Shown: positions 911 to 29,890, numbered from the stretch's first letter. The stretch: DNA of 32,000 nt from an uncultured archaeon (GCA_964354495.1 CAYHAA010000003.1:130507-162506); one strand, 5' to 3'. Notes: generated by a model from the sequence alone, not told the origin. A program made the numbers and translations.

Positions 911-1105
911 ATGCCGAAGACCGCGAAAAAGAAAAAAGGAAAGCGCGGGGACGGACCGATGCCGAGCGGTGGAGCCGGCTTGATCAGATTCTTTGAAGAC
1001 GAAACCCCAGGCATCAAGGTGGGTCCCACTGTCGTCGTGATAATCGCAAGTATTCTTCTGGTCGCCACGGTGATTGCACACATATTCTACCAATTAACAA
1101 ACTGA
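911..1105 (+). CDS. secG: Preprotein translocase subunit Sec61beta/SecG
   Basis: Basic N-terminus, signature AGLIRFFEDE...IKVGP, single C-terminal TM helix, 64 aa. Confidence 0.93.
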   Translation: MPKTAKKKKGKRGDGPMPSGGAGLIRFFEDETPGIKVGPTVVVIIASILLVATVIAHIFYQLTN

Positions 1106-1151
1106 GCAGGTCAATCTGAGTCACAGATTCAGATGAGCCATGCCCTAAGTG

Positions 1152-1157
1152 TTATAA
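1152..1157 (+). promoter_or_regulatory. TATA box of the rpl44e operon (SD GGTGA at 1190-1194)
   Basis: TTATAA 43 nt upstream of ATG 1201; GGTGA 6 nt before the start codon. Confidence 0.6.
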
Positions 1158-1200
1158 GAGACTCTAAGCCGAATCGCACAGTCAAGACAGGTGACTCGCA

Positions 1201-1482
1201 ATGAAGGTAAAAGGCGAACTGAATAAGTACTGTCCCCGCTGCCATAAATACACTGAGCATGCCGTGTCCATCGAGAAGGCTGGAAAGAGACGGAGCATGG
1301 CTCAAGGTGAACGTCGTATGAGGAAGAGGACAAAGGGCTATGGATCATTCCCGAAGCCAATCCAGCACAAGTTCGCCAAGACAACAAAGAAGACTGTTCT
1401 GAAATTCAAGTGCAAGGAATGCAGCCACATCGTTTTGGCCAAGAGTATTCGAATGAAGAAGGTAGAGGTTGAACGAGCGTAA
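1201..1482 (+). CDS. rpl44e: 50S ribosomal protein L44e (eL42)
   Basis: YCPRCHKYTEH, KGYG..PKP, KTTKK, CKEC zinc-ribbon motifs; first gene of the conserved archaeal operon. Confidence 0.97.
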   Translation: MKVKGELNKYCPRCHKYTEHAVSIEKAGKRRSMAQGERRMRKRTKGYGSFPKPIQHKFAKTTKKTVLKFKCKECSHIVLAKSIRMKKVEVERA

Positions 1483-1493
1483 GGTGATTCTTA

Positions 1494-1694
1494 ATGACCA
1501 AGGGAGAGATAGTACAGCAGCCGAATTCGCGGTTCCTTAAGGTGAAGTGTCTTGATTGTGAGAACGAGCAGATTATCTTTGGGAATGCCTCAACAGAAGT
1601 GAAATGTCTTAAGTGTGGAAAACTACTTGCTAAGCCTAGTGGAGGAAGAGCCAAGCTCGAGCCAATTGCAAGAGAAGTTGAAGTCCTTCCGTAA
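1494..1694 (+). CDS. rps27e: 30S ribosomal protein S27e
   Basis: SRFLKVKCLDCENEQIIF...CLKCG..LA.PSGGRA C4 zinc finger; SD GGTGA upstream. Confidence 0.97.
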   Translation: MTKGEIVQQPNSRFLKVKCLDCENEQIIFGNASTEVKCLKCGKLLAKPSGGRAKLEPIAREVEVLP

Positions 1695-1706
1695 GGAGAA
1701 GAGAGA

Positions 1707-2501
1707 ATGGTATTCAAACGTGGCGAATGGCCGAATGTGGACGACTATGCGATAGCAGTTGCTACCAAGGTCGCCGCATATGGGGCATACGTCACGTTGC
1801 CGGAGTATGGTGACAAGGAGGGCTTCATCCACATCTCCGAAATCAGCAGCACATGGGTCAGAAACATACGTAACCACATCCATGAGAATCTGCGAGTTGT
1901 TGTCAAGATTTTGAAGGTCGATCCTGAGAAGATGCATATTGACTGCTCGCTCAGGCGTGTTTCTAATGAGTCGAAGAGAGCTAAGAACAATGAGTGGAAA
2001 CGCGCACAGAAGGCCGAGAAGATTCTTGAACTTGTAGCCAAGGAGAATGATATGACCCTCGAACAAGTCTATGAAAAGCTTGGCTGGCCAATTGAAGAGG
2101 TCTTTGGCGAGATCTACACAGGACTTGAGCGGGCGACGGACGGGGGAGTTGAGGCCCTCGATGAGGTTCAGTCCACAAAGAAACTGAAGAAACAGGTTGC
2201 AGACTTTGCGGCACAGAGAATCGAGATTCCATCGGTCGAGATTGATGGAGAATTGACCATAGCCGTGCCAGGGCCAGAGGGTGTAGAGGTGATAAAGAAG
2301 GCCCTCACAGAGGGACTTGCCAAGGGAAAATCGCACGAGAAGTCAACGACGGAAATATACACTCTTGGCGCACCCAGATATAAACTCAGGATTGTCAGTC
2401 CTGACTACAAAGAGGCGGAGGAGGTACTCTCCGAAGTTCTCAGTCTGATTCAGACACAGGTTGAGCACGATTCTGGTACTGCGAGTTTTTTGAAGAAGTA
2501 G
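1707..2501 (+). CDS. eif2a: Translation initiation factor aIF2 alpha subunit
   Basis: N-terminal S1 domain (EGFIHISEISSTWVRNIR, KVDPEKMHIDCSLRRV), C-terminal GAPRY..PDYKEAE; operon context. Confidence 0.96.
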   Translation: MVFKRGEWPNVDDYAIAVATKVAAYGAYVTLPEYGDKEGFIHISEISSTWVRNIRNHIHENLRVVVKILKVDPEKMHIDCSLRRVSNESKRAKNNEWKRAQKAEKILELVAKENDMTLEQVYEKLGWPIEEVFGEIYTGLERATDGGVEALDEVQSTKKLKKQVADFAAQRIEIPSVEIDGELTIAVPGPEGVEVIKKALTEGLAKGKSHEKSTTEIYTLGAPRYKLRIVSPDYKEAEEVLSEVLSLIQTQVEHDSGTASFLKK

Positions 2502-2510
2502 GGAACGACA

Positions 2511-2693
2511 TTGGCGCATCTCTTCAAATGCACGAAATGCAACAGATACACTCTCAACCAGAGAGTATGCCCATCGTGCGGAGGTCCTGTGTCAGAGCCC
2601 GGACCCCCGAAATACAGTCCTCAGGACAAATATGGTGTCTATAGACGAAAAGCAAAACGCAAGAGCGTCGCTGCACAAGACGTTTCGTCATAG
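2511..2693 (+). CDS. nop10: H/ACA RNP subunit Nop10 (TTG start)
   Basis: CTKC..YTL...CPSCGG...PPKYSPQDKYG.YRR; follows aIF2alpha as in most archaea. Confidence 0.95.
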   Translation: MAHLFKCTKCNRYTLNQRVCPSCGGPVSEPGPPKYSPQDKYGVYRRKAKRKSVAAQDVSS

Positions 2694-2757
2694 ATTGTTT
2701 CAGAGAGAAAATGCGGCAACTGATAGTGAACCAGCTGCCGTACAATTCATACTCTTT

Positions 2758-5484
2758 CTAGTAGAGCTGGACCGGAACCCAGTATATTCTCCATGGACTT
2801 GCAAAGATAGGCTCGCCAGTCTTGATGTTGTCCCACCATAATAGTCTGATTTGGTAGTTCATCCCAGGATACATCCCGAGATCCTGTGGATCTCCGGATT
2901 TCAGCGGAAGGAGGAACTCGATGACACCATTGCCAGTCGCGAACTCGGTGGTGTTCGTACCAGTAGAGTCCTGAGCCCAAGTACCATCATACCGAATATG
3001 GCCATCATAGGGCAAGCCGTTGTAATTCACAATTCGTATGTCGGAATCCAGAGGCATACCCTCAGGCGAGATCTGAATGCCAAAGGCATCATCACCCACC
3101 GTGTAGTTGTTCATCTTGATTCCATAGTACATGTGGGTCGAGTTGGATCGGGTGTAGATTTGGGACTTGTAGGTTCCAGCAAATGTGTACTCGTAACTGG
3201 GTGAGGAGAGCTCAGTTGTTGACAGGCTGCCATCCAGTGAAACACCAAGGTTTGCGCTTGCCAAACCAGGAACCCAATCAGCCTTTGTCTGGTTCATGTA
3301 TTGCTCGTACATTGTATAGTCAATCTCATAGATCTTGACAAGACCGTAGGCCGAGCTGGTGAATGGGTTAACAAATGCACCGTGAAGGTTCACAGGCATG
3401 TGATCCGTCCACTCAGTATCCCTCCAGAAGAGTTCGTCTACCGAGATCCTGATATTAGTGAGCCCAAGGTTGGTCCCCTCTGTTTCATCAAGAGGCTCGC
3501 CATAGGACAGCAACTTGTAGAGTGTTGAACTGTAGAATGCTTCAAGTGTCGAATCATCGGGGCCAAGGTATGTATCATCATCGATGAATTCAGACCCAAA
3601 CTGGTCCTCGGCGATACGAACCATCCATGGCCACTTGCCATCGTCACCACCGAATCCACCGTATCTGTGGCCCCAATACACTAGTACGTGTGTCGTGTTC
3701 CACAGTTTGAATGTCTTCAGTGATTCAGTAAGATTCAGTGCCATGAGTGCATATCCCATGAGCCCTATCTGCGTACTATTGAATGTTGCATTATCCACGA
3801 TTGTCTTCGCGTCTGACCCGCTATTTATCCAATAGCCATAGTCCCACCAACTACCTATAATGGACCCTGGAGGCAGAACATTTCGGATATAGGTGATAGC
3901 GTTCTGCCAATCAGTGAACTGAGTGCTATCTGAGAGGGGTTGTGATGAAAACTCCGGCTTGCCCACCTGGTTTGAAACATATTGCACACCCAGTATCACA
4001 TTGATAGAGAGAAGAAGGCCTATGAACGCAAATGCCGCGAGAGCATGCTCAGAGGTGAGTGACGAACTCATCCTGAATCTACGCCTCTCAAACACGGACT
4101 GCTGTGTGACGACCTTCGCATAGGGTGCAAGTACGCTGTAGGCTGCCACAGCAGCCAAGACCGCAACACTTGGACCGAGAATCATGCCCAGACGAATCAT
4201 GCTTCCTGCAAAGTAGACAGAGGTCAGACCGAAAGTTACCATTAGCCAGTCTTCATCACGACCTTTCTTGAACAGGAAGTACATTCCAAGTGGAAAGAAG
4301 AAGATTAGGACTAGCAGCGTGTTATAGAATGCACCCCACGGGCTGGGAAGGTGCTCTGCAACTGAAGCAAGGATTCTCTCATCCAATCTCGTAAATGGGT
4401 TGATCACAGTAAGGAACTTTGATCCAAGAGTCAGGATTGGGTTCGAGGTGAAGGGCCGGATTGTCAGCTCAATACTTCCTGCATAGAGCAAGTAGGCAAT
4501 GACGCCAACAGCTGGTGTGATTATTCCAAGGAGAATGGGTCTCATATGGGGCAAAAGCATATTTGCCGTGGCTTCGCGATAGTGACCCACTCGGAGCCAG
4601 ACTTCGTATAGAATAAGAACTCCGGCCACTGCGATAGGAACCAGAGTCGTGAAAGAGGTCAGATTGCTAAAACCAATCCTTGGCACCATGTTACCAATAA
4701 AGAGACCAAGTGATATAGTGATCAGATAGCTCGAGAGCAACCGTTTACTGTAGTGGCCTATTACGAGCATTAGGAAAGCATAGAGACCAAGCAAGCCTAG
4801 CATGAACTCTGCTGCTCCCCAAGATACCAGCAAATACCCAAGAGAGAGACCTGCTCCAACAGAAGCCACTAGAGACCCCCGTTTCAGGCCTCTCATGAAC
4901 AGAAATGTAGTAAGAACAATGGCAAAGACACCTACAGATTCATTGTCATAGAAGCCTGCAACCGTTCTCTGGAGATATGCAGGAATGAAAGCAACGAAGA
5001 TGCTAGTAAACAGCCCAACTGTGTTATTCATGAGCTCTCTGCCAAGGAAGAATGCAATTACTGCGGTGACAGCGCCCATGAATGCTGGGAGAGCCAAGGA
5101 AACAGTAAGAATATCTATTTTGATGCCCAATCCATTGAGCAGGAAGTAGAAGAATGCGCTTGTGAAAGGCACTCCTACATAGCTGGTCCTGGCCATGTCA
5201 CGACCAAAGGGAACCCAAGTCGAATCATCATACCATGTGAAAAAGGCACTGAACCCATTCTCGGTCACATATCTAGTGATACGTATCTGAAACCATGGAT
5301 CGAAAGCACGTACGATGGGTTGAGAGTCGATTAGAGGCTCCAAACGCAGCACAAGCGCAGCGATGAAAGTTATGACTAGAGTCACAACGATAAGGACTGA
5401 ACCACGTGAGATCTTCGATTTCGGCCTGTGAAATACCTGCTTCAGGAATCTTCCAGTGGACCTCTTTATCTTGTCAAACGACAT
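2758..5484 (-). CDS. aglB: Oligosaccharyltransferase catalytic subunit AglB/STT3 with an approx. 180-aa C-terminal extra domain
   Basis: FDPWF, DNE, SVAEH, MIRL, WWDYG, DNATFNST and DDGKWPWM (DK motif); multi-pass TM N-terminal half. Confidence 0.96.
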   Translation of the reverse strand: MSFDKIKRSTGRFLKQVFHRPKSKISRGSVLIVVTLVITFIAALVLRLEPLIDSQPIVRAFDPWFQIRITRYVTENGFSAFFTWYDDSTWVPFGRDMARTSYVGVPFTSAFFYFLLNGLGIKIDILTVSLALPAFMGAVTAVIAFFLGRELMNNTVGLFTSIFVAFIPAYLQRTVAGFYDNESVGVFAIVLTTFLFMRGLKRGSLVASVGAGLSLGYLLVSWGAAEFMLGLLGLYAFLMLVIGHYSKRLLSSYLITISLGLFIGNMVPRIGFSNLTSFTTLVPIAVAGVLILYEVWLRVGHYREATANMLLPHMRPILLGIITPAVGVIAYLLYAGSIELTIRPFTSNPILTLGSKFLTVINPFTRLDERILASVAEHLPSPWGAFYNTLLVLIFFFPLGMYFLFKKGRDEDWLMVTFGLTSVYFAGSMIRLGMILGPSVAVLAAVAAYSVLAPYAKVVTQQSVFERRRFRMSSSLTSEHALAAFAFIGLLLSINVILGVQYVSNQVGKPEFSSQPLSDSTQFTDWQNAITYIRNVLPPGSIIGSWWDYGYWINSGSDAKTIVDNATFNSTQIGLMGYALMALNLTESLKTFKLWNTTHVLVYWGHRYGGFGGDDGKWPWMVRIAEDQFGSEFIDDDTYLGPDDSTLEAFYSSTLYKLLSYGEPLDETEGTNLGLTNIRISVDELFWRDTEWTDHMPVNLHGAFVNPFTSSAYGLVKIYEIDYTMYEQYMNQTKADWVPGLASANLGVSLDGSLSTTELSSPSYEYTFAGTYKSQIYTRSNSTHMYYGIKMNNYTVGDDAFGIQISPEGMPLDSDIRIVNYNGLPYDGHIRYDGTWAQDSTGTNTTEFATGNGVIEFLLPLKSGDPQDLGMYPGMNYQIRLLWWDNIKTGEPIFASPWRIYWVPVQLY

Positions 5485-5595
5485 ATGGAGTGCTCTCTCC
5501 GTGCTCTTTCGAACTAGCAGCAGCGATTTTGTGATACGCTAAAAAGGTTGTTGTTAATTGTACAGTCGTCCTAACGACTAGTACTTGTAGAATAC

Positions 5596-5645
5596 AAAAA
5601 AGATTGAGAAATAGGGCCATGATGAGGCATCTTGGCCGCATCATG
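5596..5645 (-). terminator. Putative gcvH terminator (hairpin plus T-tract)
   Basis: Inverted repeat CATGATG(5618-5624)/CATCATG(5639-5645) with inner GGC/GCC pairs, then TTTTTT on the minus strand (5601-5596), just downstream of the gcvH stop. Confidence 0.5.
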
Positions 5646-5662
5646 TTTTGTGGAATCAGTAT

Positions 5663-6070
5663 CTATTCTGAAGCAATGAGAGCCCTGTACGCATCTGCCT
5701 TCATTAACTTCGCAAGATCGGCCTTCAGATTCGAGGGCTTAATCTTGAACATCCAACCCTTTCCATAGCAGTCTTCGTTGACAATCTCAGGGGCATCCTC
5801 AAGCTCAGTATTCACTTCAACGATTTCACCACTTACCGGCGAAAACATATCAGATGACGCCTTCATAGACTCTACAAGTCCGCATTCCTCACCTGCTTTG
5901 ACGGCAGTGCCAACCTCAGAGATCTCGACAAATGTAATCTCGTGTAGGGAATTCTGAGCATGGTCCGTTATCCCAACGACAACGATGTCACCTTGAACCT
6001 TGGCATACTCATGCTCCTTGCTATAATATAGTCCATCTTTGACTTCGGTGCCATCCATATAGTCCACCAA
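5663..6070 (-). CDS. gcvH: Glycine cleavage system H protein
   Basis: YYSKEHEY, VGITDHAQ, lipoyl-Lys motif VESMKASSDMFSPVSG, IVNEDCYGKGWMFKI. A TTTAAA box at 6094-6099 suggests its own promoter; start is TTG 6070 or ATG 6058. Confidence 0.96.
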   Translation of the reverse strand: MVDYMDGTEVKDGLYYSKEHEYAKVQGDIVVVGITDHAQNSLHEITFVEISEVGTAVKAGEECGLVESMKASSDMFSPVSGEIVEVNTELEDAPEIVNEDCYGKGWMFKIKPSNLKADLAKLMKADAYRALIASE

Positions 6071-6111
6071 GGACCACGGGTTATTGTACTCTGTTTAAAT
6101 CAGTTTGGATG

Positions 6112-7257
6112 TTACACGGTGCGCGATCCACCGTACTTCTCAGGATCATAGAAGGGCCACTCGGCAATCTCGGCCTTTCGATGACGCCCCTTGATATCAA
6201 TCTCAATTATGTCCCCTGTGTTGACCATATTGGGGGGGGCATATCCAAGGCCTATCCCCTTGCCCAAGACTGGAGAAACACCCCCACTGGTTATCTGACC
6301 TATTACGTTTCCATTCAGAAGAATAGGGTAGTGTTCTCTTGGGATTCCACGATCAATCATCACGAACCCGATGCGCGTCTTCTTCACACCTTCCTCCTTG
6401 TGACTTCTGACTGTATCAAAACCAATGTAGTGGGGCTCTACCTTGAACTTGACGGCATATGAAATCCTGGCCTCGATTGGAGATGTTTCCTCATCAAGCT
6501 CGTGACCATAGAGGACAAACCCGGCCTCAAGACGGGTCGAGTCTCTGGCACCGAGGCCGCAGGGCTTGATACCAAACTCAACTCCCTGTGCAAGAAGGAT
6601 CTCCCAGAAACTTATCGCTCTCTGCTTGCCCTTATCAGTAAAGGGACAGTCTAGTATAAGAACCTCGGCACCATCCTCACCGGTGTAGCCAGTTCTGCAT
6701 AGGTATGTATCATATCCTGCAATATCAACAGGGTAGCAGGTGAATCGGTTGTACTCACTGAGATCACGCCCTGCGATTTTGCTCAGTAGTTGGAGTGCTT
6801 TCGGGCCTTGCACAGCAATCATGACAATCTCTGAGGACCGGTCTATAACCTTGACATCATATGACTTGGACTGCTTTGACAGATGTCGCTTAATCTTCGG
6901 GCCATTCCCAGCATTGGTGATCCAGACATACTCATCAGTGCCTATCCTATAGAGCATCAGGTCATCATGTATGCCCCCGTGCTCGTTCAGGCAGGTCGCG
7001 TAGTGCCCGCCATTCACATCGAGTTTGCTCACATTATTCGTAGTCATCCTCTGGAGGAATTCTGCGGCCTGTGGGCCTTTGACAAAGAACCGGAACATAT
7101 GACTCGTGTCAAATATGCCAGCTCCATCTCTGACTGCCATATGTTCTTCTCTGATGTCACTGTACCTAACAGGCATCTCCCACCCGGCAAAGGGGATCAC
7201 ATCGCCATGCGCTTTATGCCAATCATAGAGCTGGGTTCGTTTCAACGCGTCACTCAT
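6112..7257 (-). CDS. gcvT: Glycine cleavage system aminomethyltransferase T
   Basis: KRTQLYDWH, FAGWEMPVRY, FDTSHM, GGIHDDL, VQGP, RTGYTGEDG, CGLGARDSTRLEAG.LYGHEL. Confidence 0.97.
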   Translation of the reverse strand: MSDALKRTQLYDWHKAHGDVIPFAGWEMPVRYSDIREEHMAVRDGAGIFDTSHMFRFFVKGPQAAEFLQRMTTNNVSKLDVNGGHYATCLNEHGGIHDDLMLYRIGTDEYVWITNAGNGPKIKRHLSKQSKSYDVKVIDRSSEIVMIAVQGPKALQLLSKIAGRDLSEYNRFTCYPVDIAGYDTYLCRTGYTGEDGAEVLILDCPFTDKGKQRAISFWEILLAQGVEFGIKPCGLGARDSTRLEAGFVLYGHELDEETSPIEARISYAVKFKVEPHYIGFDTVRSHKEEGVKKTRIGFVMIDRGIPREHYPILLNGNVIGQITSGGVSPVLGKGIGLGYAPPNMVNTGDIIEIDIKGRHRKAEIAEWPFYDPEKYGGSRTV

Positions 7258-7345
7258 TGAGATACCTCGTCTATTTCTTGGTTCTTGACTACATCAGCTA
7301 CATTTTATCTCCTTCTATACAGACTCTGAATAGAGGCGAACATTA

Positions 7346-8215
7346 TTGGAACTGCCCTATGTTGACGTGTCTGGGCTTCGGATTGGAGAGGGATATCCTG
7401 TTCGGGTCATGGGAATCCTCAATCTGTCACCGGAGTCGTTCTACAGGGACTCGGTTGCTATTGATGAAGACTCTATCCAGCAAGCTGTTGCTAGATTCGA
7501 GAGAGAAGGCGCAGATATCATTGACATAGGGGGAGCCTCAACAGCTCCCAAGAATATCTATGGCACTCCTGAAGTAAGTGTCAGTGAGGAACTCAGACGG
7601 GTCACGGAAGCTATTGCCATGATAACTACGATGACCAAGCTTCCATTATCCATCGATACTGTTTCTTCTATGGTGGCCAAGAAGGCACTTGATTTGGGAG
7701 CGTCAGTCATAAATGACGTGTCTGGATTGAGGGCGGACTCAAAGATGGCAAAGCTAGTGGCGAACAGATCTGTTCCAGTCATACTCATGGGGAACTGTGG
7801 AAACCCCTGTGGTAGCTATCAGGCTTCCATAGACTCACTGAGGAGCAGTTTCTCAATAGCTCTTGAAACAGGAATTGAATCCAGTATGATACTAGTTGAC
7901 CCAGGGATAGGCTTTGGCAAGCAGCCTGAAGTGGACTATGAGATACTACGCAATCTGCATGCGTTCATGGCACTTCATCGCCCCGTGCTTGTAGGCGTGT
8001 CCCGGAAGGCATTCATCGGATATCAGTTGGGGCAACCAGACCCCTCTGATCGACTTCTGGGATCGATTGCAGCAACCTCTGTAGCAGTATACAGCGGGGC
8101 CAGTCTCATACGAACACACGATGTCAAAGAAACAAGAATTGCAGTTGCCATAGGAGAGGCAATTCGAGGGAATGCGCCGGGAAACCGGAGAAACCAGATG
8201 GAGGATTCAAAATGA
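7346..8215 (+). CDS. folP: Dihydropteroate synthase (pterin-binding TIM barrel), TTG start
   Basis: MGILNLSPESF, DIGGAST, SIDT, INDVSG, DPGIGFGK, GVSRKAFIG, IRTHDV. Confidence 0.92.
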   Translation: MELPYVDVSGLRIGEGYPVRVMGILNLSPESFYRDSVAIDEDSIQQAVARFEREGADIIDIGGASTAPKNIYGTPEVSVSEELRRVTEAIAMITTMTKLPLSIDTVSSMVAKKALDLGASVINDVSGLRADSKMAKLVANRSVPVILMGNCGNPCGSYQASIDSLRSSFSIALETGIESSMILVDPGIGFGKQPEVDYEILRNLHAFMALHRPVLVGVSRKAFIGYQLGQPDPSDRLLGSIAATSVAVYSGASLIRTHDVKETRIAVAIGEAIRGNAPGNRRNQMEDSK

Positions 8216-8925
8216 GATGGCTCGATTGGGAACCAGTCTATCTTGACATCGTCAATAGACTGAACCTAGACCCAGCCATGGATCAAGAGGCAACAAGACT
8301 TCTCACAGAGATGTTGATGAAAATCGAGCCAAGGCCACTGCTTTGTCAGCTACAGAGAATAATCCAAGGTAAGACAATTGTGATCTGCGGGGCAGGACCT
8401 TCACTTGAAACACACCTTCAATCTGTGATGAGTACTAGAGATGGCTCAAGTTTCGTCTATGTTGCGGCGGATGGGGCGGTGTCAGCTCTTCTGAATCTGG
8501 GCTGCGAATGCAGTATCATCACCACGGACCTCGATGGTAATCTGGATGATATAGAGGAGGCCACAGAGTGCGGGGCAGTGACAATTGTCCATGCCCATGG
8601 AGACAACATGGACAAGGTGAGGGAAGTAGTTCCGAAACTGGGAGCAGTGCTCGGAAGTACACAGGTGGAGCCAACTGAACGTGCCTTTCTGTGGGGCGGC
8701 TTTACTGATGGTGACCGAGCATGTCATGTTGTGGCAGACTATTCACCAGACAGAATCATTCTCGCAGGCATGGACTTTGGTGTCCTCGTGGGAAAGTGGT
8801 CCAAACCAATGCATGAAGATCACTTCCCAGCGAGCGAACGAAAGAGAGTCAAACTCAATATTGCCCAGCATCTGATATCATCAGTGATGGAGCGAACAGA
8901 TATACCCTTCACAGTACTCAAGTGA
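8212..8925 (+). CDS. mptE: Archaeal 6-hydroxymethyl-7,8-dihydropterin pyrophosphokinase (DUF115 family)
   Basis: AADGA, TTDLDG, VHAHGDN, GGFTDGDRA, GMDFG, KWSK; ATGA overlap with folP. Confidence 0.92.
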   Translation: MRWLDWEPVYLDIVNRLNLDPAMDQEATRLLTEMLMKIEPRPLLCQLQRIIQGKTIVICGAGPSLETHLQSVMSTRDGSSFVYVAADGAVSALLNLGCECSIITTDLDGNLDDIEEATECGAVTIVHAHGDNMDKVREVVPKLGAVLGSTQVEPTERAFLWGGFTDGDRACHVVADYSPDRIILAGMDFGVLVGKWSKPMHEDHFPASERKRVKLNIAQHLISSVMERTDIPFTVLK

Positions 8926-8956
8926 CATCTGAGATGGGCATGCGGACGCGTAACGC

Positions 8957-9379
8957 CTAGATCTGGCCTGTCTTGATACCCCATAGATAACTGAAGATAA
9001 GGAACGATACACCAGACATGATGATGCCTAGAATCATGAGCCTGGTAGCATAGCCTGGCTGAAAGACGTATTTGGATCCGTAGTAGATAAGACCGAGGCC
9101 CATCACACCAACAAAAATGACAACTGATGCAACGACTCCTTCCATACCGAGCTGTGCATCAAGACCTGGAGCCACGAGAATTGGCGTTCCATCGGAGCTC
9201 CCTGCAATTGCAGGTGGGGTTCTTACGAGCGTGTATACATTACCACCGAGGACAAACAAGATAGCAATGAACATGAGGCCAAATATGACTGTGTCCGGAG
9301 GCCTGCTCGGCATCCTGAACTTGGGCCTTGAAAGCCTCACTTTGGGTCGTAGAATAATCCTCGGCCACCAAGCTCGCAT
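8957..9379 (-). CDS. OST3/OST6-family membrane protein, DC2/OSTC-like (3 TM, no thioredoxin domain)
   Basis: GGNVYTLVRTPPAI, QLGMEG and GVMGLGLI align in order with recalled human DC2 segments GGIIYDVIVEPPSV, QYIMEG and GGLGFII; similar length and basic/Pro-rich N-terminus. Confidence 0.8.
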   Translation of the reverse strand: MRAWWPRIILRPKVRLSRPKFRMPSRPPDTVIFGLMFIAILFVLGGNVYTLVRTPPAIAGSSDGTPILVAPGLDAQLGMEGVVASVVIFVGVMGLGLIYYGSKYVFQPGYATRLMILGIIMSGVSFLIFSYLWGIKTGQI

Positions 9380-9538: not shown

Positions 9539-11653
9539 TTGATGGTACTTACCGAAAAACCAACAGCGGCAAAGAAGATTGCTACTGCTCTTGACGAGAA
9601 AAGATTACCTAGAGAGGTCAAGAGAGGAAAGACATCATACTATGAATGCAAGAGAGGAATTGATGAACTCATCGTTGTATATGCTCTGGGGCATCTCTTC
9701 GAGCTTCAGCAGGTTGAGAAGGGATGGACCTATCCCCGTATGGAGAGTAAATGGGTTCCAAAGTATGAAGCAGATAAGAAGGCAACCAATACCAGACCAA
9801 TCATAAGCCTGATACAAAGACTATCACGAGATGTTGATGGATTCATTGTTGCAACAGACTATGATATCGAGGGCAGTCTGATTGGATATCTCACGCTGAA
9901 ATACGCCTGCAAAGCGGACCCGATGAAGGCACATCGGATGCTGTTCTCTGCATTGACTGAAACGGATGTGGAGAAGGCCTATGATACCAAAGGCGCTCTA
10001 GATTTTCCGGTCATTGAGGCAGGTCATGTTCGCCATGAAGTCGATTGGCTATATGGTATCAATCTGACAAGAGCTCTGACCCTGTCTGTCAAGAAAGCAG
10101 CTGGCTGGTTCAAGGTGGTTTCAACAGGACGCGTTCAAGGGCCAACCCTTTCATTCATAGCTCAGAGGGAGAGAGAGATCAATCTCTTCATTCCAACGCC
10201 CTACTGGACGATTCATGTGATTGGTTCTCATAATGAAGATGAAATTGAGTTGGAGTACTCCAAGGGGCAGGTCTCATCAAAGCGGGATGCCAACAGAATC
10301 GTGAGTAAGCTGAGTGGACAGGATGCAATAGTGGGCTCAATAAACAAACGGACTGCTACGCAGCAACCACACCCACCATTCAGTCTAAGCTCGCTTCAGG
10401 CAGAAGCCTACAAGCATTTCGGTTTCAAGCCCAGCCGAACCCTCGCAATAGCGCAAGGGCTCTATCTTGATGCTCTAATATCCTATCCAAGAACAGACAG
10501 TGAGATGCTCCCTCCCACATTGGACATCAAGAACATACTTACTGGCCTGGGAGGTATCAAGGACTATACGTCAATGGTGGCGACTATTCTAAAGGGCAGA
10601 CTAATACCGATTCAAGGAAAGAAGACGGATCCAGCACATCCAGCAATACATCCTACGGGAGAGAAACCGACCAGACAGCTATCACCGAGCGATAAGAGAG
10701 TCTACGACCTCATCGTACGAAGATTCCTCTCGCTCTTTGGAGAGCCGATTGTCAAGAATCATCTGAGAGCTGATATTGAGTGCGGCAATCATTGTCTATA
10801 CGCAAGAGGGCTCCAGATTGTGAAAAAGGGATGGCTAGAGTTCTATGAGCCCTACTTCAAGCCCGATGAAAAAGCTCTTCCTGACATTGAGGTGGGTGAC
10901 ACTATCCATCTTGCATCCGTAGACTCGGAGGACAAATACACGGAGGGGCCTGCCCGGTTCAACCCGTCTAGCCTCTTGAAGCTACTAGAGAGAGAGAATC
11001 TTGGAACAAAGGCGACAAGATCGAGTATTGTAGATTCAGTGAAATCGAGAGGATACACCCAAGGAGACAGATTTGAACTCTCTACTCTCGGATATGCTGT
11101 TTTTGAGACTTTGAACCAGTATATCCCAGAGATGCTATCACCAGAGATGACAAGACGACTGGAGGTAGAGATGGAGCGCGTTCGGAGCGGTATCAAGGGT
11201 CGGGAGAGCGTCGTCACTGAAGCGAAGGCCGACCTTCTCAGAAATCTCAAGGAATTCAAGAGCAAAGAAGGCAAGATAGGTGAAACACTGGTCAAGGGGC
11301 TCCAGAGATATTGGAGGGACACCGAAGAACTTGGGCCGTGTCCAAAATGTGATGATGGTATCCTCAGGATTGTAAGGTCTCCAAAGACGGGAAAGAGATT
11401 CGTGGGATGCTCAAACTACAGGGAAGGCACATGCGATCAGACATTTCCACTTCCTCAGAAGGGAACCATTGCGCCTCTTGATGATGTCTGCCCGTATTGC
11501 AACCATAGAATGATAAAGGTGATTTCTGGGCGACGAACATGGACCACGTGTATTAACTGGTCGAAATGTCCAGGAAGACAAGAAGACCTCAAGGCTCTGG
11601 ATGAAAGAAGAGCCAAGAGGGATGGTGACGCTGTTGGAGGGCAGGAGTCATGA
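9539..11653 (+). CDS. topA: DNA topoisomerase type IA (archaeal TopA) with C-terminal Zn ribbons
   Basis: TEKP, ATDYDIEG (TOPRIM), STGRVQGPTL, catalytic SYPRTDS, GTKATR, CPKC/CPYC ribbons; TTTAAAA box at about 9477; start TTG 9539 or ATG 9542. Confidence 0.97.
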   Translation: MMVLTEKPTAAKKIATALDEKRLPREVKRGKTSYYECKRGIDELIVVYALGHLFELQQVEKGWTYPRMESKWVPKYEADKKATNTRPIISLIQRLSRDVDGFIVATDYDIEGSLIGYLTLKYACKADPMKAHRMLFSALTETDVEKAYDTKGALDFPVIEAGHVRHEVDWLYGINLTRALTLSVKKAAGWFKVVSTGRVQGPTLSFIAQREREINLFIPTPYWTIHVIGSHNEDEIELEYSKGQVSSKRDANRIVSKLSGQDAIVGSINKRTATQQPHPPFSLSSLQAEAYKHFGFKPSRTLAIAQGLYLDALISYPRTDSEMLPPTLDIKNILTGLGGIKDYTSMVATILKGRLIPIQGKKTDPAHPAIHPTGEKPTRQLSPSDKRVYDLIVRRFLSLFGEPIVKNHLRADIECGNHCLYARGLQIVKKGWLEFYEPYFKPDEKALPDIEVGDTIHLASVDSEDKYTEGPARFNPSSLLKLLERENLGTKATRSSIVDSVKSRGYTQGDRFELSTLGYAVFETLNQYIPEMLSPEMTRRLEVEMERVRSGIKGRESVVTEAKADLLRNLKEFKSKEGKIGETLVKGLQRYWRDTEELGPCPKCDDGILRIVRSPKTGKRFVGCSNYREGTCDQTFPLPQKGTIAPLDDVCPYCNHRMIKVISGRRTWTTCINWSKCPGRQEDLKALDERRAKRDGDAVGGQES

Positions 11654-11871
11654 AAGAGTGTCGAATCTGTGGTCGCAACAGTACTGAGGAGGACCTCTGT
11701 GAATATCATAGCGCCGCCTATGCTGGTCTCAAATCTGTCTTTGAGAAGTGGGCAGCGGTAGTGGAGGGACTGACCTGGGAGAAGTACGTTGATAGCGTCA
11801 GGGAGCTCGAGAACACTGGGCAGTGGGTCAGAGAAATAATCGACGATATCAGGTCACAAGATGATTCCTGA
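11650..11871 (+). CDS. Small Zn-finger protein (CxxC-x9-CxxH) coupled to topA
   Basis: MKECRICG...LCEYH; ATGA overlap with the topA stop; GGAGG at 11636-11640. Confidence 0.75.
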   Translation: MKECRICGRNSTEEDLCEYHSAAYAGLKSVFEKWAAVVEGLTWEKYVDSVRELENTGQWVREIIDDIRSQDDS

Positions 11872-12193
11872 GAAGAGACATTAGCTCGATTATCACTTCA
11901 CGATTCATCTGTGCAAGACCTATGACGACCAAGCAAGTCCGATTGGTCCAATATGCAACTCGCTCACTCACTGTTCGTACCAGAGCGTTGTCAACGCCCA
12001 TTGACAATAACCCCGCTGAAGTGGGTTCTGTACTTCCTTGTCCAGGCGGAATCGCTACTGCCGAGATACCCAGCCTAAAACGTTCTTTGTCTGATATCAG
12101 TATCAGAAGGCCATTCTCAAGATCTAGAATCCGAACTCTAATTGTGCCCATGCTGGTTTCTGATGAGAACTCGGATATGTCATCAAATTTCAT
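11849..12193 (-). CDS. Proteasome assembly chaperone PAC4 (PSMG4/Poc4)-like protein
   Basis: Pattern VRILDLENGLLILIS-RLGISAVAIP-PTSAGLL-VSERVAYWTNRTCLV parallels recalled human PSMG4 HVMRLTDSLFLWVG-HLRNLAVAM-PVSTSLL-LAQRLARKTNKQVFV; similar size. Confidence 0.6.
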   Translation of the reverse strand: MKFDDISEFSSETSMGTIRVRILDLENGLLILISDKERFRLGISAVAIPPGQGSTEPTSAGLLSMGVDNALVRTVSERVAYWTNRTCLVVIGLAQMNREVIIELMSLLRNHLVT

Positions 12194-12296
12194 GAGAGGT
12201 CACGGATTGTTCGGAGGGGCACTTGGTTAAATCAATACCGACACTTGAAGCAACATGGTTATCAATGCCAACGATTGATTGAGCCTTGGCACCTCC

Positions 12297-14234
12297 ATGA
12301 CTGACAATGCTTCCAGACACACAGAATACTTTCCATATCCCTTGCCTCGACAAGGACAGAGTGAGATGATGACTGAGATTGAAACAGCCGTGGGCACAGG
12401 GGTCAACATATGTGCTGAGGCACCAAATGGGTTTGGAAAGACATGCGTCACATTGAGCGCCATCCTTCCTTGGATCAAAGAAAATGCTGGAAAAGTGCTC
12501 TACTGTGCACGGACTCATAGACAACTGGATCGTGTCATGGAAGAGATGCTGGAGATTTCAAGGCATCAAGACGTATCAGGGGTCTCATTCCGTGGAAGAC
12601 GACACATGTGCCTGAATCAGTTCGTATTGGAAAATGCGGACATTGTTGCCCCTATAAGTGAGGTCTGTGGACAGCTGAAGGCCACTGGAAGATGTTCATA
12701 CTATGAGAAACTGAAGAAAGCTGGAGATCCGGACGAGCTCCTAGAGGACTTGTCGGGAAAGGTTCTGACAGCCCCTGAGATTGTCAAGCTTGCAGAGAGC
12801 AAGTCGATGTGCCCGTACGAAATGGCAAAACGCTTGGCGAAAGTCGTGGATGTAGTCGCACTCTCATACTTGTACGTGTTTGACCCCTGGATACTCGAGG
12901 TGTTCATTCCAGAACTTGGAACGCCGCCCTCAAAGATGGTTCTTGTTCAGGATGAGGCTCATAATGTCCCTGCGACTGCCTTGGACTCTGCAAGCGACTC
13001 CCTGACCGTACGAGTTGTGAGACAGGCAACACGCGAAGTGGGTGATGGTCCGTATAAGGACACCACCTCGTTTGAGTTCTGTCGCGCCCTCACAAGGAGA
13101 ATGCTTGAGCTCACTTCGGATATGAAGGAGAATGGAGAGAAGACGGTCGACCCTCAGGAGATTGTTGATTCGGTCACTACTATTGCGGGACTGGACTCGA
13201 CTGATAGAGTGCTCCATCATATGAAAGACCACGGACTTGAGATAAAGAAGAGCCTGCTGAAAGCGGGCAAGTTCCCTCGTTCCTCCATTCATAGGGTGGG
13301 CGACTTTCTTCTGGATTGGGTGAAGTGCGCTAAGAGAGAAGACTTTGTGTTTTTCTTGGCAAACATGATAGAGAGTGGCGAAGGCAAACGGGTGTCCCTT
13401 GATCGTGTTGCTTTGAATCCCACCTCTGTGACGTCTCCAATCTTGAGTATGGTTCACAGCTCGGTTGCTGTCTCTGGGACGCTCTCACCATTAGATGCCT
13501 ATGCCGAAATGCTCGGGCTCGGCTCTGATGTAGTCAAGGCCACATTCCAGAGTCCGTTTGCCATGAAGAACAGGCTTGGACTGGTGGTTCATGGGTTGGA
13601 TACGACCTTTCAGAATAGAAGTAGCTCGATGTATCAGAGGATTACGAGTCATTGCTTAGCTGTTGTGAGTGCTACCCCTGGCAACACAGGAATATTCACA
13701 GCGAGCTATTCCATCGCAAGATCTCTCATTGAAGCAGGTCTTGAAAAACGCCTGAAGAGAAAGCTCTTCATTGAAAGACCTGGAATGAAGGGAGCAGACA
13801 ATGACAGAATGATTGAGGATTTCAAGAGCCGTGGTGAGAGAGGTGGAGCTGTGCTTCTGGGCGTTCAGGGAGGGCGAAACTCTGAAGGTGGCGACTTCCC
13901 GGGACCAACCATGGAGAGTGTTGTAGTGGTAGGAGTACCATATGCCAAACTCACACCCAGGGTGGAGGCGCTCATCAACTATTACGATAAGGTCTTCAAT
14001 CAAAGAGGCAAAGACTATGCCTATGTGCTACCAGCAATGACAAGAGCTATTCAGGCAGCTGGTAGGCCAGTTCGAAGACTAGATGATAGAGGGGCGATTG
14101 TGCTGCTTGACCAGAGGTTTGCAACCCCCTATCTATCGAGATTCATTCCCTCATGGCTCAAGGAAACGCTCCAAGAGGTCCCCGACAATCCTGATGTGGT
14201 CGCACATCGGGTCGAGAGCTTCTTCATGGCCTAG
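12297..14234 (+). CDS. xpd: XPD/Rad3-family 5'-3' SF2 helicase with 4Fe-4S cluster (ORF track starts at 12279)
   Basis: Q motif RQGQ, APNGFGKT, four FeS cysteines (HMCLN, EVCG, GRCSY, MCPYE), DEAH, SGTL, QAAGRPVR. Confidence 0.93.
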   Translation: MTDNASRHTEYFPYPLPRQGQSEMMTEIETAVGTGVNICAEAPNGFGKTCVTLSAILPWIKENAGKVLYCARTHRQLDRVMEEMLEISRHQDVSGVSFRGRRHMCLNQFVLENADIVAPISEVCGQLKATGRCSYYEKLKKAGDPDELLEDLSGKVLTAPEIVKLAESKSMCPYEMAKRLAKVVDVVALSYLYVFDPWILEVFIPELGTPPSKMVLVQDEAHNVPATALDSASDSLTVRVVRQATREVGDGPYKDTTSFEFCRALTRRMLELTSDMKENGEKTVDPQEIVDSVTTIAGLDSTDRVLHHMKDHGLEIKKSLLKAGKFPRSSIHRVGDFLLDWVKCAKREDFVFFLANMIESGEGKRVSLDRVALNPTSVTSPILSMVHSSVAVSGTLSPLDAYAEMLGLGSDVVKATFQSPFAMKNRLGLVVHGLDTTFQNRSSSMYQRITSHCLAVVSATPGNTGIFTASYSIARSLIEAGLEKRLKRKLFIERPGMKGADNDRMIEDFKSRGERGGAVLLGVQGGRNSEGGDFPGPTMESVVVVGVPYAKLTPRVEALINYYDKVFNQRGKDYAYVLPAMTRAIQAAGRPVRRLDDRGAIVLLDQRFATPYLSRFIPSWLKETLQEVPDNPDVVAHRVESFFMA

Positions 14235-15058: not shown

Positions 15059-15748
15059 TTGATTCTTCCGTCAGGGCTTTCACTCCTTGACCGCATCATG
15101 AATGGCGGTCTCAGTACTGGATTTTTCACTCATGTCTATGGTGAGGCAGCAGCAGGGAAAACAACGCTCGCTCTAAAATACGTTGGAGAGCTCTGCAGAC
15201 AGGAGTTGGGAACAATCTACGTCAACTCTGAGAATACATCACCTGTTGAGAGACTCGAACAGGTAACAGGAAAGACGTTCAAGAATCTCGAGCCTTTTTT
15301 CAAGATACTGGCACCGAGGGGATTCCTTGAACAGGGAGTACTATTGGAGGACCTGGAGCTCTATATCCGCGGGAATACCAAGTTGGTTGTTATCGACACT
15401 CTGACGAAACACTACCGTCTTGCGCTTGAGGACAAGAGAACCAACTACTCCAATCATCGTGAACTTAATCGACAGACAGGACTCCTGAAGGGACTAGCAC
15501 AGAATTATGATATCGCAGTCTTGGTCTTGAATCAGGTCACTGCATCCATGCATGGAATCAATGATTTCGAACCAGTGGCAGGTAACATCTTGGACTACTG
15601 GTCTGATTATGTGATTAAGATGAGAATTGGGCGAACTCAGGGAGGACGGATACTCCAAAGGCTTGTCCCAGACAATGAAAAGCTTGAGGGCGAACTCTTC
15701 CTGACAAATGAGGGCTTTTCGATGAAACCTACTCATGAGAAAGAGTGA
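15059..15748 (+). CDS. radB: RadB-like RecA/RadA paralog (ATPase core only), TTG start
   Basis: SG...LDRIMNGG, Walker A GEAAAGKT, Walker B VVIDT, VLNQV, PVAGNILDYWS; SD GTGAGGT upstream; the usual C-terminal KHR motif is not seen. Confidence 0.8.
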   Translation: MILPSGLSLLDRIMNGGLSTGFFTHVYGEAAAGKTTLALKYVGELCRQELGTIYVNSENTSPVERLEQVTGKTFKNLEPFFKILAPRGFLEQGVLLEDLELYIRGNTKLVVIDTLTKHYRLALEDKRTNYSNHRELNRQTGLLKGLAQNYDIAVLVLNQVTASMHGINDFEPVAGNILDYWSDYVIKMRIGRTQGGRILQRLVPDNEKLEGELFLTNEGFSMKPTHEKE

Positions 15749-15771: not shown

Positions 15772-16347
15772 ATGGAGTGCTGCTTGATGTACGAAGAACT
15801 GGCTCTCTTTGAGCTAGCAGTCTGGTTAGGGTTACCCGCGTGGGTCGCTAATGCCACACCAGTTCTAGGGGGTGGTGGAAGGCCCATTGATGGAGAACGT
15901 CATCTTCGTGATGGACGCCGACTGCTCGGAAAGGGAAAGACCGTGCGAGGTTTCATTGTCGGACTGATTTTTGGAGCCCTGACCGGACTTGCACAATTCC
16001 TTGTGGCTCCATACCTTCGACCACTTCTGGCCATGTTTGTTACTATTACGCCGGATATGGACTATGTGCTCTCCATGCAGATACCAGTGGCGGTCCTAAT
16101 GTCCTTTGGTGCGCTGACAGGAGACCTCGTGGGATCATTTATCAAGAGGCGGGTCGGCGTTGAGAGCGGAGACCCGTCACCGGTCATGGACCAATTGGGG
16201 TTCATCATTATGGCCCTAATCTTTGCAGCGCTCATCTTTAGGCCAAGTCCAGTATTTGTTATGATTCTTATCATCACGACATTCTTCGTTCACTGGTTCA
16301 GTAACGCGTTGGGATATCTTCTTGGGCTGAAGAAGCATCCATGGTGA
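15772..16347 (+). CDS. carS: CDP-archaeol synthase (start may be ATG 15787)
   Basis: PAWVANATPV.GGG.PID, DGRRLLGKGKTVRG, GDLVGSFIKRR, PVMDQLGF; multi-TM. Confidence 0.95.
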   Translation: MECCLMYEELALFELAVWLGLPAWVANATPVLGGGGRPIDGERHLRDGRRLLGKGKTVRGFIVGLIFGALTGLAQFLVAPYLRPLLAMFVTITPDMDYVLSMQIPVAVLMSFGALTGDLVGSFIKRRVGVESGDPSPVMDQLGFIIMALIFAALIFRPSPVFVMILIITTFFVHWFSNALGYLLGLKKHPW

Positions 16348-24936: not shown

Positions 24937-25003
24937 GTGTGATACAACCATCAATATTCAGCAACGGTTATAAGTGCACCAACTCCGAGAGCACAAGATT
25001 CCA

Positions 25004-28208: not shown

Positions 28209-28809
28209 AGAAGAAGCGCCACTGATTGTCTTTACAGGCAGAAGCAATGTGGGAAAAAGTAGTGTGATTCGTGCACTGACTGGAAAGAAAGTACTAGTCG
28301 GAAAGCGCCCCGGAAGTACACGGTGGGAACAAATGATTGAGATGGGATCCATCACAATTGTGGACGTACCGGGTTTTGGTTTTATGGATGGTCAAAGCAA
28401 AACCACCATCGAAGCATCAAAAACACATATCATTCATTCTCTTGAGAGATGGAGCAACAGAATCTTGCTATCTGTCCTCATCACTGACATCTCTCTATTC
28501 AGAGACCTTCACGACCGGTGGACTGGCCGCGGCGAAATACCCGTAGACGTTGAGTTCTACTCATTCCTGTGTGAGATATCGCCACGTGTTGTTGTCATAG
28601 CCAATAAGGCCGATAAGCTGATGAAAGGCCGTGTTCAGGGCGAATTAGACTTTCTTGTTGAGAAACTCATGGAAGCAGTTACTGAGAGAGAACTGACTGT
28701 CATTGTGACAGTGGCCTCAAAGAAGACCGGTGTTTCACTACTCCGAGAGCTTATTGACGATATACTCAAGGAGGAGGGCCTCGAACCCCCCAGATGGGCG
28801 CTCACCTGA
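28183..28809 (+). CDS. engB: GTP-binding protein EngB/YihA family (start ATG 28183, overlaps the lhr end by 26 nt)
   Basis: G1 GRSNVGKSS, G2 PGST, G3 DVPG, G4 NKAD. Confidence 0.9.
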   Translation: MRERDPTGEEEAPLIVFTGRSNVGKSSVIRALTGKKVLVGKRPGSTRWEQMIEMGSITIVDVPGFGFMDGQSKTTIEASKTHIIHSLERWSNRILLSVLITDISLFRDLHDRWTGRGEIPVDVEFYSFLCEISPRVVVIANKADKLMKGRVQGELDFLVEKLMEAVTERELTVIVTVASKKTGVSLLRELIDDILKEEGLEPPRWALT

Positions 28810-29890
28810 ACTTCTTCAGCAGGTAGAAAGCCACACCGACAATCATGACTGCCGAGGATATTATCAGCATTGGAACTATAGCACTAGGTACTTCTGCGAA
28901 GTCCTTTGATAGCCAACCCATGATATTCATGAAGAGTCTAGCATTATCACCAACGTAGAACCAGTGTAATTCAGTATCTTCAAGATCTAATGGTCTTCCA
29001 GTGAACATGATTGTAGATCCGCAGATAACAACCCTGCTCGATCCAAATTCAAAGGCCGAGAGCCATGCTGGAAATGTACCATTGAGGGCCGAGTACGACA
29101 ATGGTTTTTGTTCGTATTCATCCAGAGTCATATTCGGATGAGAGTAGTTGGCCCAACCGTTCGCGCTTACTTGGTACTGCGCAAAGGAACTCTCATGGCC
29201 ATGGCCAATACCACTAGCGAGTCCGACTGGTTTTAGTGTACCAGTGATTGTGTATAGCTCGTTGATGTTCCTGAAGATTGGATGAGTGGAGTCCCAAGTC
29301 GTGGAGTCCATTTGTATGACCCAAGGTATGCTTTCATTGAGAGAGTGGTCATAATCGAACATTGTGTCAGACCAATCATGAGTGGTTGTATGATTGTTAC
29401 TGAATCTCACACCAGTCATATTGACACCATCAAGCAGACTGTTGATGACAATGTTGTCACCAATATCCTGTATTGCCGCTTCAGACCAGTAGGTGGATTG
29501 CTGACCGAGTGCAGGATTTCCTAGCACGAACAAAGAGCTGCCATTTGCCAGCATCTCGTTAATCCCATTGAACTCAGCTGCAGAGAAGGCTGAGCTCTGA
29601 TCCGGACCAGCAATTATGAGAACATCAACATCATTGAGTACTTCATCGGTGAGAGGAGCCGAATTGACACGGACAATGTATCTTGTTGTATCATTGACAA
29701 GGTCAAGGATCAGCTTTAACCCCAAATCAGCGTTATCAGCAGCAAACTGAGGAGAATGAGCGGCGTCGAACATGACAATAATGGGATCAAGGTCGGCTTG
29801 AGCCTGAACAGTAGCCTGAACACCTGAGAGCAGAATCATCACTGCCAAGATTGTCGCAAGTACTCCGCGGACTTTACTGAGCTCCTTCAT
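28802..29890 (-). CDS. Type I membrane glycoprotein with a GIFT-like (GldG/IFT52/OST48-N) extracellular domain
   Basis: Signal peptide; VMFDAAH, DVLIIAGP, GSSLFVLG, SRVVICGS..MF, NARLFMNIMGWL; C-terminal TM plus KKFR; 8 N-X-S/T sequons. Confidence 0.8.
   Translation of the reverse strand: MKELSKVRGVLATILAVMILLSGVQATVQAQADLDPIIVMFDAAHSPQFAADNADLGLKLILDLVNDTTRYIVRVNSAPLTDEVLNDVDVLIIAGPDQSSAFSAAEFNGINEMLANGSSLFVLGNPALGQQSTYWSEAAIQDIGDNIVINSLLDGVNMTGVRFSNNHTTTHDWSDTMFDYDHSLNESIPWVIQMDSTTWDSTHPIFRNINELYTITGTLKPVGLASGIGHGHESSFAQYQVSANGWANYSHPNMTLDEYEQKPLSYSALNGTFPAWLSAFEFGSSRVVICGSTIMFTGRPLDLEDTELHWFYVGDNARLFMNIMGWLSKDFAEVPSAIVPMLIISSAVMIVGVAFYLLKKFR

Follow-up and report, generated by a model that had tools for sequence, protein, structure and literature searches.

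Oligosaccharyltransferase (OST) in most archaea is the single-subunit enzyme AglB. In mammals, DC2/OSTC couples OST to the translocon and ribophorin I is the ribosome-docking subunit of OST; to our knowledge, OSTC has no role outside OST. For Asgard archaea, the published homologues first comprised Ost1, Ost3/6 and STT3, to which Ost2, Ost4, Ost5, Swp1 and Wbp1 were later added (Eme 2023, PMC10307638), and a Sec61/OST/TRAP translocon hypothesis has been put forward for Ca. Prometheoarchaeum syntrophicum MK-D1, with AF2 models superposed on 8B6L and an Ost1 domain that binds ribosomes (Carilo et al. 2024, PMC11417166). Both the parts and the idea of an Asgard translocon-associated OST are already published (PMC11417166, PMC10307638). 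Here we compare with these systems a 32-kb stretch of DNA, the window (CAYHAA010000003.1:130507-162506), from a genome of Thorarchaeota (Asgard archaea) that is 3.3 Mb in size and 97.7% complete. The assignment follows public proteins, identical or near-identical to those encoded here, that carry the name Candidatus Thorarchaeota. An earlier note on this stretch had placed in it secG, aglB, a gene of the OST3/6 family with three transmembrane (TM) helices and a gene for a GIFT-domain type I membrane protein, and had read them as a possible translocon-docked, multi-subunit OST. We found each of these four open reading frames (ORFs) where it had been placed:

911..1105, + strand: Sec61beta (archaeal SecG), tail-anchored translocon subunit, 64 amino acids (PF03911, NF002318)
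2758..5484, - strand: STT3/AglB, eukaryote-type catalytic oligosaccharyltransferase, 908 amino acids (PF02516, WWDYG)
8957..9379, - strand: DC2/OSTC-like OST subunit, 140 amino acids, three TM helices (membrane part of PF04756; OSTC profile match)
28802..29890, - strand: GIFT-domain type I membrane protein, 362 amino acids (AF2 model and fold comparison; sub-threshold Pfam matches)

The genes of the window lie on both strands, and those for the OST and translocon proteins are interleaved with unrelated ones, so that they do not form one operon, as had also been noted earlier. We consider it probable that the window encodes a minimal pair of STT3 and a DC2-like subunit, set within a conserved block of housekeeping genes.

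The DC2-like protein and STT3/AglB

In the 140-residue protein, we found that PF04756 matches with E 6.9e-10 (39.3 bits against a cut-off of 27) and that the match covers profile positions 182-283 of 294, which is the membrane part only. The protein has three hydrophobic segments (residues 26-54, 72-102 and 110-135) and no thioredoxin domain; profile positions 1-181 are unmatched, and a length of 140 residues leaves no space for them. When the single sequence was searched against the PDB with phmmer, it matched OSTC only (human and canine, E 2.6e-4), and a profile of 32 Thorarchaeial orthologues likewise matched OSTC only (E 3.6e-7, with residues 12-136 aligned to 15-142 of 149). Neither the single sequence nor the profile matched Ost3, Ost6, TUSC3 or MAGT1 in the PDB at E up to 10. 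These comparisons support a DC2/OSTC-like rather than an Ost3/6-like protein, and the earlier description of this three-TM gene as DC2-like stands. The N-terminal segment is basic, Pro-rich and strongly conserved (WWP..I..P..L.RP.F..P.RPPD), which argues that the gene starts at its first Met. The gene is present in 83 of the 87 genomes of the class Thorarchaeia that we sampled, and in 24/24 of the high-quality ones. The short, thioredoxin-less architecture recurs in other families of an Asgard sample of 161 genomes of the phylum (families labelled f1-f23). In the literature that we searched, we found no paper that calls an Asgard OST3/6 homologue DC2-type.

Sequences resembling the thioredoxin-like part of PF04756 do occur apart from this gene. 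In the same genome, profile positions 46-106 match a separate 168-residue frame (contig C2:17421-17582, - strand), and in f19 genomes frames of ~145-155 residues that match positions 6-143 lie ~17 kb from Sec61beta. These frames may be ordinary thioredoxins or a split Ost3-like luminal domain; the former reading is suggested by matches of the PF04756 model in bacteria too.

The catalytic candidate, AglB, matches PF02516 with E 9e-49 and carries WWDYG at residue 546, and STT3 is single copy in a search of the genome. In the PDB, its strongest sequence matches are to eukaryotic STT3, STT3A and STT3B (E 4e-84 to 7e-78, residues 14-661), those to STT3 and STT3A falling between E 4e-84 and 4e-82. 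In contrast, archaeal AglB (P. furiosus) and bacterial PglB match it around WWDYG only, with E ~3e-4. Because the eukaryotic matches are far stronger, AglB is by sequence an STT3 of the eukaryotic type, a feature already described for Asgard archaea. The membrane domain ends near residue 505. Past the part that aligns with STT3 there are ~170 extra C-terminal residues (~740-908, window positions 2758-3300), a beta-rich region with several sequons. A 56-residue frame that overlaps the start of aglB (5474-5644, - strand) was considered as an Ost4-like partner and set aside, since it looks like a chance frame.

To model the complex, we used AglB residues 1-740 (29-row alignment), leaving out residues ~740-908, together with the DC2-like protein (39-row alignment), in three runs and with 3 controls. 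The interaction prediction score from aligned errors (ipSAE) was 0.78 in three runs, while the best of the 3 controls reached 0.00. In calibration, the mark applied to this score was reached by 58/80 solved complexes and by 2/110 mismatched pairs, counts that hold roughly here since custom alignments were used. The runs share at least 74% of contacts, and the predicted local distance difference test (pLDDT) of the partner is at least 73. The predicted interface lies between AglB residues 363-494, which comprise the end of external loop 5 (EL5) and the last four membrane helices (TM10-13), and residues 29-136 of the partner. In the yeast OST, three helices of Ost3 contact Stt3 TMH10, 11 and 13 (PMC7226087). 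Of the modelling that the earlier note had proposed, the part with AglB and the DC2-like protein thus returned a predicted interface well above the controls, which puts the DC2-like protein at the Ost3/DC2 site of AglB.

In the reading that we prefer, the single eukaryote-type STT3/AglB is the catalytic oligosaccharyltransferase and the 140-residue protein a DC2/OSTC-type accessory subunit, which would pack all three of its helices on AglB TM10-13, beside the side on which the lipid-linked oligosaccharide enters. From homology, conserved presence and the predicted interface, we infer that STT3 and the DC2-like protein may be a minimal equivalent of the eukaryotic OST subcomplex II.

Gene order around the pair

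The genes that surround the pair are listed here; all were assigned by a Pfam match except the Nop10-like one, which was judged by reading the sequence.

1201-1482, + strand: L44e, context gene outside OST
1494-1694, + strand: S27e, context gene outside OST
1707-2501, + strand: eIF2alpha, context gene outside OST
2511-2693, + strand: Nop10-like zinc ribbon, 60 amino acids, TTG start, after eIF2alpha
5663-6070, - strand: GcvH, unrelated intervening gene
6112-7257, - strand: GcvT, unrelated intervening gene
7346-8215, + strand: pterin-binding DHPS-like, unrelated intervening gene
8212-8925, + strand: MptE-like, unrelated intervening gene
9539-11653, + strand: topoisomerase I, unrelated co-travelling gene
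12279-14234, + strand: XPD helicase, unrelated co-travelling gene
15059-15748, + strand: RadB-like, unrelated co-travelling gene
15772-16347, + strand: CDP-archaeol synthase CarS, unrelated co-travelling gene

The remaining genes are also housekeeping genes: a CBS protein, the PolD large subunit, RPA, cysteine desulfurase, Elf1, Lhr, a GTPase and a metallophosphoesterase. The candidate Nop10 would fill out the usual archaeal L44e-S27e-eIF2alpha-Nop10 cluster. A 114-residue ORF (11849-12193, - strand) shows weak matches to proteasome assembly chaperones (PAC4, E 0.0012; PAC_bac, E 0.0029), both below the cut-off.

Both AglB and the DC2-like gene are carried by 80 of the 87 Thorarchaeial genomes. 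They lie on one contig in 62 of these 80 and no more than 5 kb apart in 60 (median 3.6 kb), and in the other 18 they are on different, mostly short contigs; the chance that two given genes lie within 5 kb in a 3.3-Mb genome is ~0.3%. Linkage of the two genes extends to f3 (4.3 kb), f18 (1.6 kb), f15 (~6 kb) and part of f5 (7.5-17 kb), and in f4 the two genes are adjacent and divergent with a 324-bp spacer. The closeness on which the earlier note had built, and whose absence from related genomes it had named as counting against it, is thus conserved in Thorarchaeia and in several other Asgard families. The distance between Sec61beta and STT3 is ~2.7 kb in most f5 genomes and 1.7 kb in the window.

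As a control for synteny, we compared all 27 proteins of the window by tblastn with neighbourhoods, ~0.55 Mb in total, from 11 other Asgard genomes. In an f15 genome (G102), we found the order L44e-S27e-eIF2alpha-AglB-GcvH-GcvT-DHPS-...-DC2-like-CarS-RadB-orf297, which is near the Thorarchaeial order and has the same intervening genes between AglB and the DC2-like gene as the window, and also the run Lhr-GTPase-RPA-GIFT-CBS-Sec61beta; sub-blocks of both runs are present in other families. The closest-kept neighbours of the DC2-like gene are CarS, RadB and often XPD (f3, f12, f13, f15, f18), those of AglB are eIF2alpha-S27e-L44e, which adjoin STT3 in four other Asgard families, and those of the GIFT gene are PolD, CBS, RPA and Sec61beta. 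The whole 32-kb window is an ancient, deeply conserved Asgard syntenic block. So deep a synteny among functionally unrelated archaeal genes is unusual. In f3, f12, f13, f15 and f18, a CarS-like gene directly adjoins the DC2-like gene, an association tighter than that between the DC2-like gene and STT3.

Several points weigh against the reading of a functional STT3-DC2-like pair, among them the roughness of the calibration given above. The proximity of AglB and the DC2-like gene is real, yet unrelated genes of the window are linked as faithfully as the OST genes, and proximity alone is therefore no argument for joint function; the linkage looks no different from a gene order that was retained neutrally. 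In f9, f12 and f13 there is no linkage between the DC2-like gene and STT3, and in one closed genome 423 kb separates them. The modelled pair is homologous to solved complexes, and the pass of the prediction may come from likeness to the STT3A-DC2 and Stt3-Ost3 structures, so that it supports binding but does not demonstrate it. Searches for further subunits in this genome, which covered ribophorin I, OST48_N, Ost4, Ost5 and TRAP-gamma, found no match to the Ribophorin_I model at E up to 10, and only noise for the Pfam models of Ost4 (E 1.6) and TRAP-gamma (E 0.16). Given the missing subunits, any complex may be far simpler than the eukaryotic OST. Of the earlier note's OST neighbourhood, the conserved closeness remains, and a linkage specific to OST does not.

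The same gene order bears on the explanation that AglB acts alone and that the PF04756 protein has a role outside OST, perhaps in membrane transport or as an assembly factor. A lone AglB is what most archaea have, PF04756 is labelled a 'transporter family' owing to MagT1/TUSC3, and the DC2-like gene, unlinked from STT3 in three families, is tied most faithfully to CarS/RadB. However, the similarity of the small protein to OSTC, whose sole known role is in OST, is specific and near full-length, the interface is predicted at the homologous surface of STT3 and the controls score zero, AglB belongs to the eukaryotic type of STT3, a type that operates with partners of this kind, and the two genes are adjacent and divergent in f4. 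A glycoproteomic study of one Asgard archaeon is reported to show no clear eukaryote-like traits (PMC11284389), in keeping with an AglB that acts alone. On balance, we regard this explanation as unlikely and prefer the minimal STT3-DC2-like pair, with the window as a conserved housekeeping block that happens to hold three genes for membrane proteins of secretion and N-glycosylation. Their closeness would then be inherited from an ancestral Asgard gene order holding many unrelated genes and would not mark an operon-like functional cluster.

The GIFT-domain protein and docking on the translocon

The GIFT protein has a signal-peptide-like segment at residues 3-32, a hydrophobic C-terminal segment at 331-361 (TM ~338-361 in the model) and a KKFR tail, and its Pfam matches, to ABC_transp_aux and IFT52_GIFT, are below threshold. 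A Thorarchaea-only alignment gave a poor AF2 model (pLDDT 52.4) and was replaced by a 74-row alignment, with which pLDDT was 85.8 and the predicted template modelling score (pTM) 0.81. The model contains one extracytoplasmic GIFT domain (~37-333). In fold comparisons made via the model, the ectodomain aligned with IFT52 at Z 23.2 / 23.0, with the human OST48 N-domain (chain residues 45-303) at Z 22.1-22.6 (rmsd 2.5-2.6 A over 229-231 residues) and with yeast Wbp1 at Z 19-20, and generic GATase1-like folds reached at most Z 16.4. IFT52 and OST48 are thus tied as its closest folds. The TM helix starts at ~338, right after the GIFT domain, and the second (middle) luminal domain is absent.

At the sequence level, OST48_N (PF03345) found no match in the GIFT protein at E up to 1 nor genome-wide at E up to 10. 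Among the 32 Thorarchaeial orthologues, ABC_transp_aux matched 29/32, IFT52_GIFT 28/32 and OST48_N 1/32 (E 0.037). A profile search over 1.8 billion representatives drew out a wider family of 325-430-residue proteins with the same layout. A profile of this wider family, which may include OST48_N-like members, matched IFT52 (E 9e-14) and human OST48 (E 1e-10) in the PDB; the OST48 match appears with the wider profile only, and the Thorarchaea-only profile gave a weak IFT52 match (E 0.0055) and none to OST48. OST48_N-type proteins are found in other Asgard families, in f4 (460 residues), f19 (431-437 residues) and f23 (~585 residues), at 41.5-52 bits against a cut-off of 36, and those of 431-460 residues have an ectodomain ~100 residues longer than that of the GIFT protein. 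In f4 and f19, genes of the OST48_N type and of the short GIFT type co-occur, and the two types are therefore paralogues: the Thorarchaeial GIFT protein is a one-domain paralogue, not an orthologue, of the Asgard WBP1-type proteins. This fits Eme et al. 2023 (PMC10307638), in which Ost2, Swp1 and Wbp1 are reported from no group other than Heimdallarchaeia (Njordarchaeales included). The 'OST48-like gene' of the earlier note thus encodes a protein with the GIFT fold and type I layout but with neither an OST48_N match nor the middle domain, and it is not an OST48 orthologue. The protein has 8 N-x-S/T sequons, every Asn of which is invariant in the 32-sequence Thorarchaeial alignment, and this conservation suggests that it is itself a glycoprotein. 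We propose that it would be an exported, probably N-glycosylated and possibly sugar-binding protein of a family related to, and distinct from, OST48/Wbp1.

Sec61beta matches PF03911 (E 1.8e-13, 50.7 bits against a cut-off of 27) and NF002318 (E 3.7e-13), and its single C-terminal hydrophobic segment (residues 32-63) agrees with a tail-anchored Sec61beta/SecG protein. On present evidence it would be an ordinary translocon subunit with no specific tie to OST. In f9 and f20, ribophorin I adjoins Sec61beta in divergent orientation, and in f19 the distance from ribophorin I is 5-6 kb to an OST48_N-type gene and ~33-39 kb to STT3. In the window, the position that ribophorin I holds in f9 is occupied by orf128 (372-758, - strand), which is divergent from Sec61beta; we considered it as a ribophorin I remnant and rejected it, as it is a two-TM protein without a supporting match. 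In 41 other Thorarchaeial genomes, Ribophorin_I gave three weak matches, inside frames of ~1000 residues, compared with matches in 86 of 119 other Asgard genomes. The latter count indicates that the search works, and Thorarchaeia are probably without a recognisable Ost1 (ribophorin I).

Two further small ORFs deserve mention. For Ost5/TMEM258, homologues of which have been reported from most Asgard classes (Eme et al. 2023, PMC10307638), we found one sub-threshold match in an 81-residue frame (C5:166658-166831, - strand; E 0.011, 17.9 bits, positions 11-70/73). Between elf1 and lhr in the window there is a 48-residue single-TM ORF (24974-25120, + strand), represented by an open frame of ~45-50 residues in 80/87 Thorarchaeial genomes, for which we found no Pfam or PDB similarity, Ost4 included.

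These data bear on the fuller proposal that Thorarchaeia assemble a translocon-docked multi-subunit OST, in which the DC2-like protein would link STT3 to SecYE-beta in the manner of mammalian OST-A, the one-domain GIFT protein would be an OST48/Wbp1-type subunit and the neighbourhood would reflect their joint function. The DC2-type identity and predicted STT3 binding are in line with it, as are a GIFT ectodomain about as near to the OST48 N-domain as to IFT52, the type I topology with a KKxx-like tail, and the OST48 match of the wider family profile. Gene positions can be read in the same way: short GIFT-type genes lie 4-9 kb from Sec61beta in f10, f12, f15 and f16, while their distance to the DC2-like gene is 2-3 kb in much of f5 and ~7 kb in genus g34, and ribophorin I stands near Sec61beta or OST48_N-type genes in the three families named above. 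However, the middle domain of OST48 is missing from the GIFT protein, which the OST48_N model does not match either, genuine OST48_N-type proteins coexist with the short type as paralogues, the conserved neighbours of the GIFT gene (PolD, CBS, RPA) point to background synteny, ribophorin I is not detectable in Thorarchaeia, and the partners of OST48 are reported from Heimdallarchaeia only (PMC10307638). In addition, mammalian DC2 acts together with KCP2 (PMC5674889). For MK-D1 there is a published Sec61/OST/TRAP model (PMC11417166), and docking of an STT3-DC2-like complex on SecYE-beta for co-translational glycosylation would be an instance of that published hypothesis. We judge the proposal as a whole to be quite unlikely, and its two added parts, namely that the GIFT protein belongs to the OST and that the complex docks on Sec61, to be speculative and very improbable. 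Of the multi-subunit OST in the earlier note, the predicted AglB/DC2-like pair is what persists; the GIFT protein is not an OST48 orthologue, and ribophorin I was not found.

A variant to which we likewise give very little credence is that Thorarchaeia run a minimal, ribophorin-less OST-A-like complex, in which the DC2-type subunit docks STT3 on SecYE-beta and the one-domain GIFT protein is a primordial Wbp1/OST48-like glycan- or donor-binding subunit, perhaps together with the 48-residue protein. If this were true, the translocon-docking DC2 form, and not the thioredoxin-bearing Ost3/6 form, would be ancestral, and subunits of the subcomplex III type would extend beyond Heimdallarchaeia.

Comparison with described OST systems

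The preferred STT3-DC2-like pair, if it forms, would give a Thorarchaeial example for the published case that places the origin of the eukaryotic multi-subunit OST in Asgard archaea. The finding is another member of the known Asgard toolkit, with modest refinements: the Asgard 'OST3/6' proteins that we examined have the DC2/OSTC architecture (short, three helices, no thioredoxin), and Thorarchaeia appear to be without ribophorin I. The synteny control is also a caution for Asgard 'eukaryotic signature' neighbourhoods; because gene order is deeply conserved across these 32 kb, finding genes close together here is little evidence that they act jointly.

Compared with the MK-D1 set (PMC11417166) and the Eme catalogue (PMC10307638), the families Sec61beta, STT3 and OST3/6 are the same and so is the hypothesis. 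In contrast to MK-D1, where ribophorin I (OST1) is central, it was not found in this Thorarchaeial genome. The GIFT protein resembles OST48/Wbp1 (6S7O chain G, 8B6L chain N, 6EZN chain G) in the GIFT fold of the N-domain and resembles OST48 in having a signal peptide, an extracytoplasmic domain, one C-terminal TM helix and a short basic tail. It differs from OST48/Wbp1 (PF03345 plus middle domain) in having one luminal domain instead of two, so that the alignment is limited to OST48 45-303, and in belonging to a paralogue group separate from the 431-460-residue Asgard proteins. Its fold is equally like the GIFT domain of IFT52 (5FMR, 5FMS; Z 23.0-23.2).

With yeast Ost3/Ost6 and human TUSC3/MAGT1, which belong to OST subcomplex II, the DC2-like protein shares PF04756 through its membrane part, and its three helices are predicted on the Stt3 surface used by Ost3 (TMH10, 11, 13; PMC7226087); it differs from them in lacking the luminal thioredoxin domain and in having three TM helices instead of four. 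The closest counterpart is human DC2/OSTC (6S7O chain H, 8B6L, 8PN9, 6FTG), the STT3A-specific subunit of OST-A. Both proteins have ~140-150 residues, three TM helices and no thioredoxin domain, and the match between them spans the basic, Pro-rich N-terminal segment and the GG..Y....PP and Q..(M/L)EG blocks. Sequence identity is low, and the Thorarchaeial organism has no endoplasmic reticulum, so that any complex would sit in the cell membrane; there, the DC2-like protein is predicted to take the seat on STT3 TM10-13 that human OSTC occupies.

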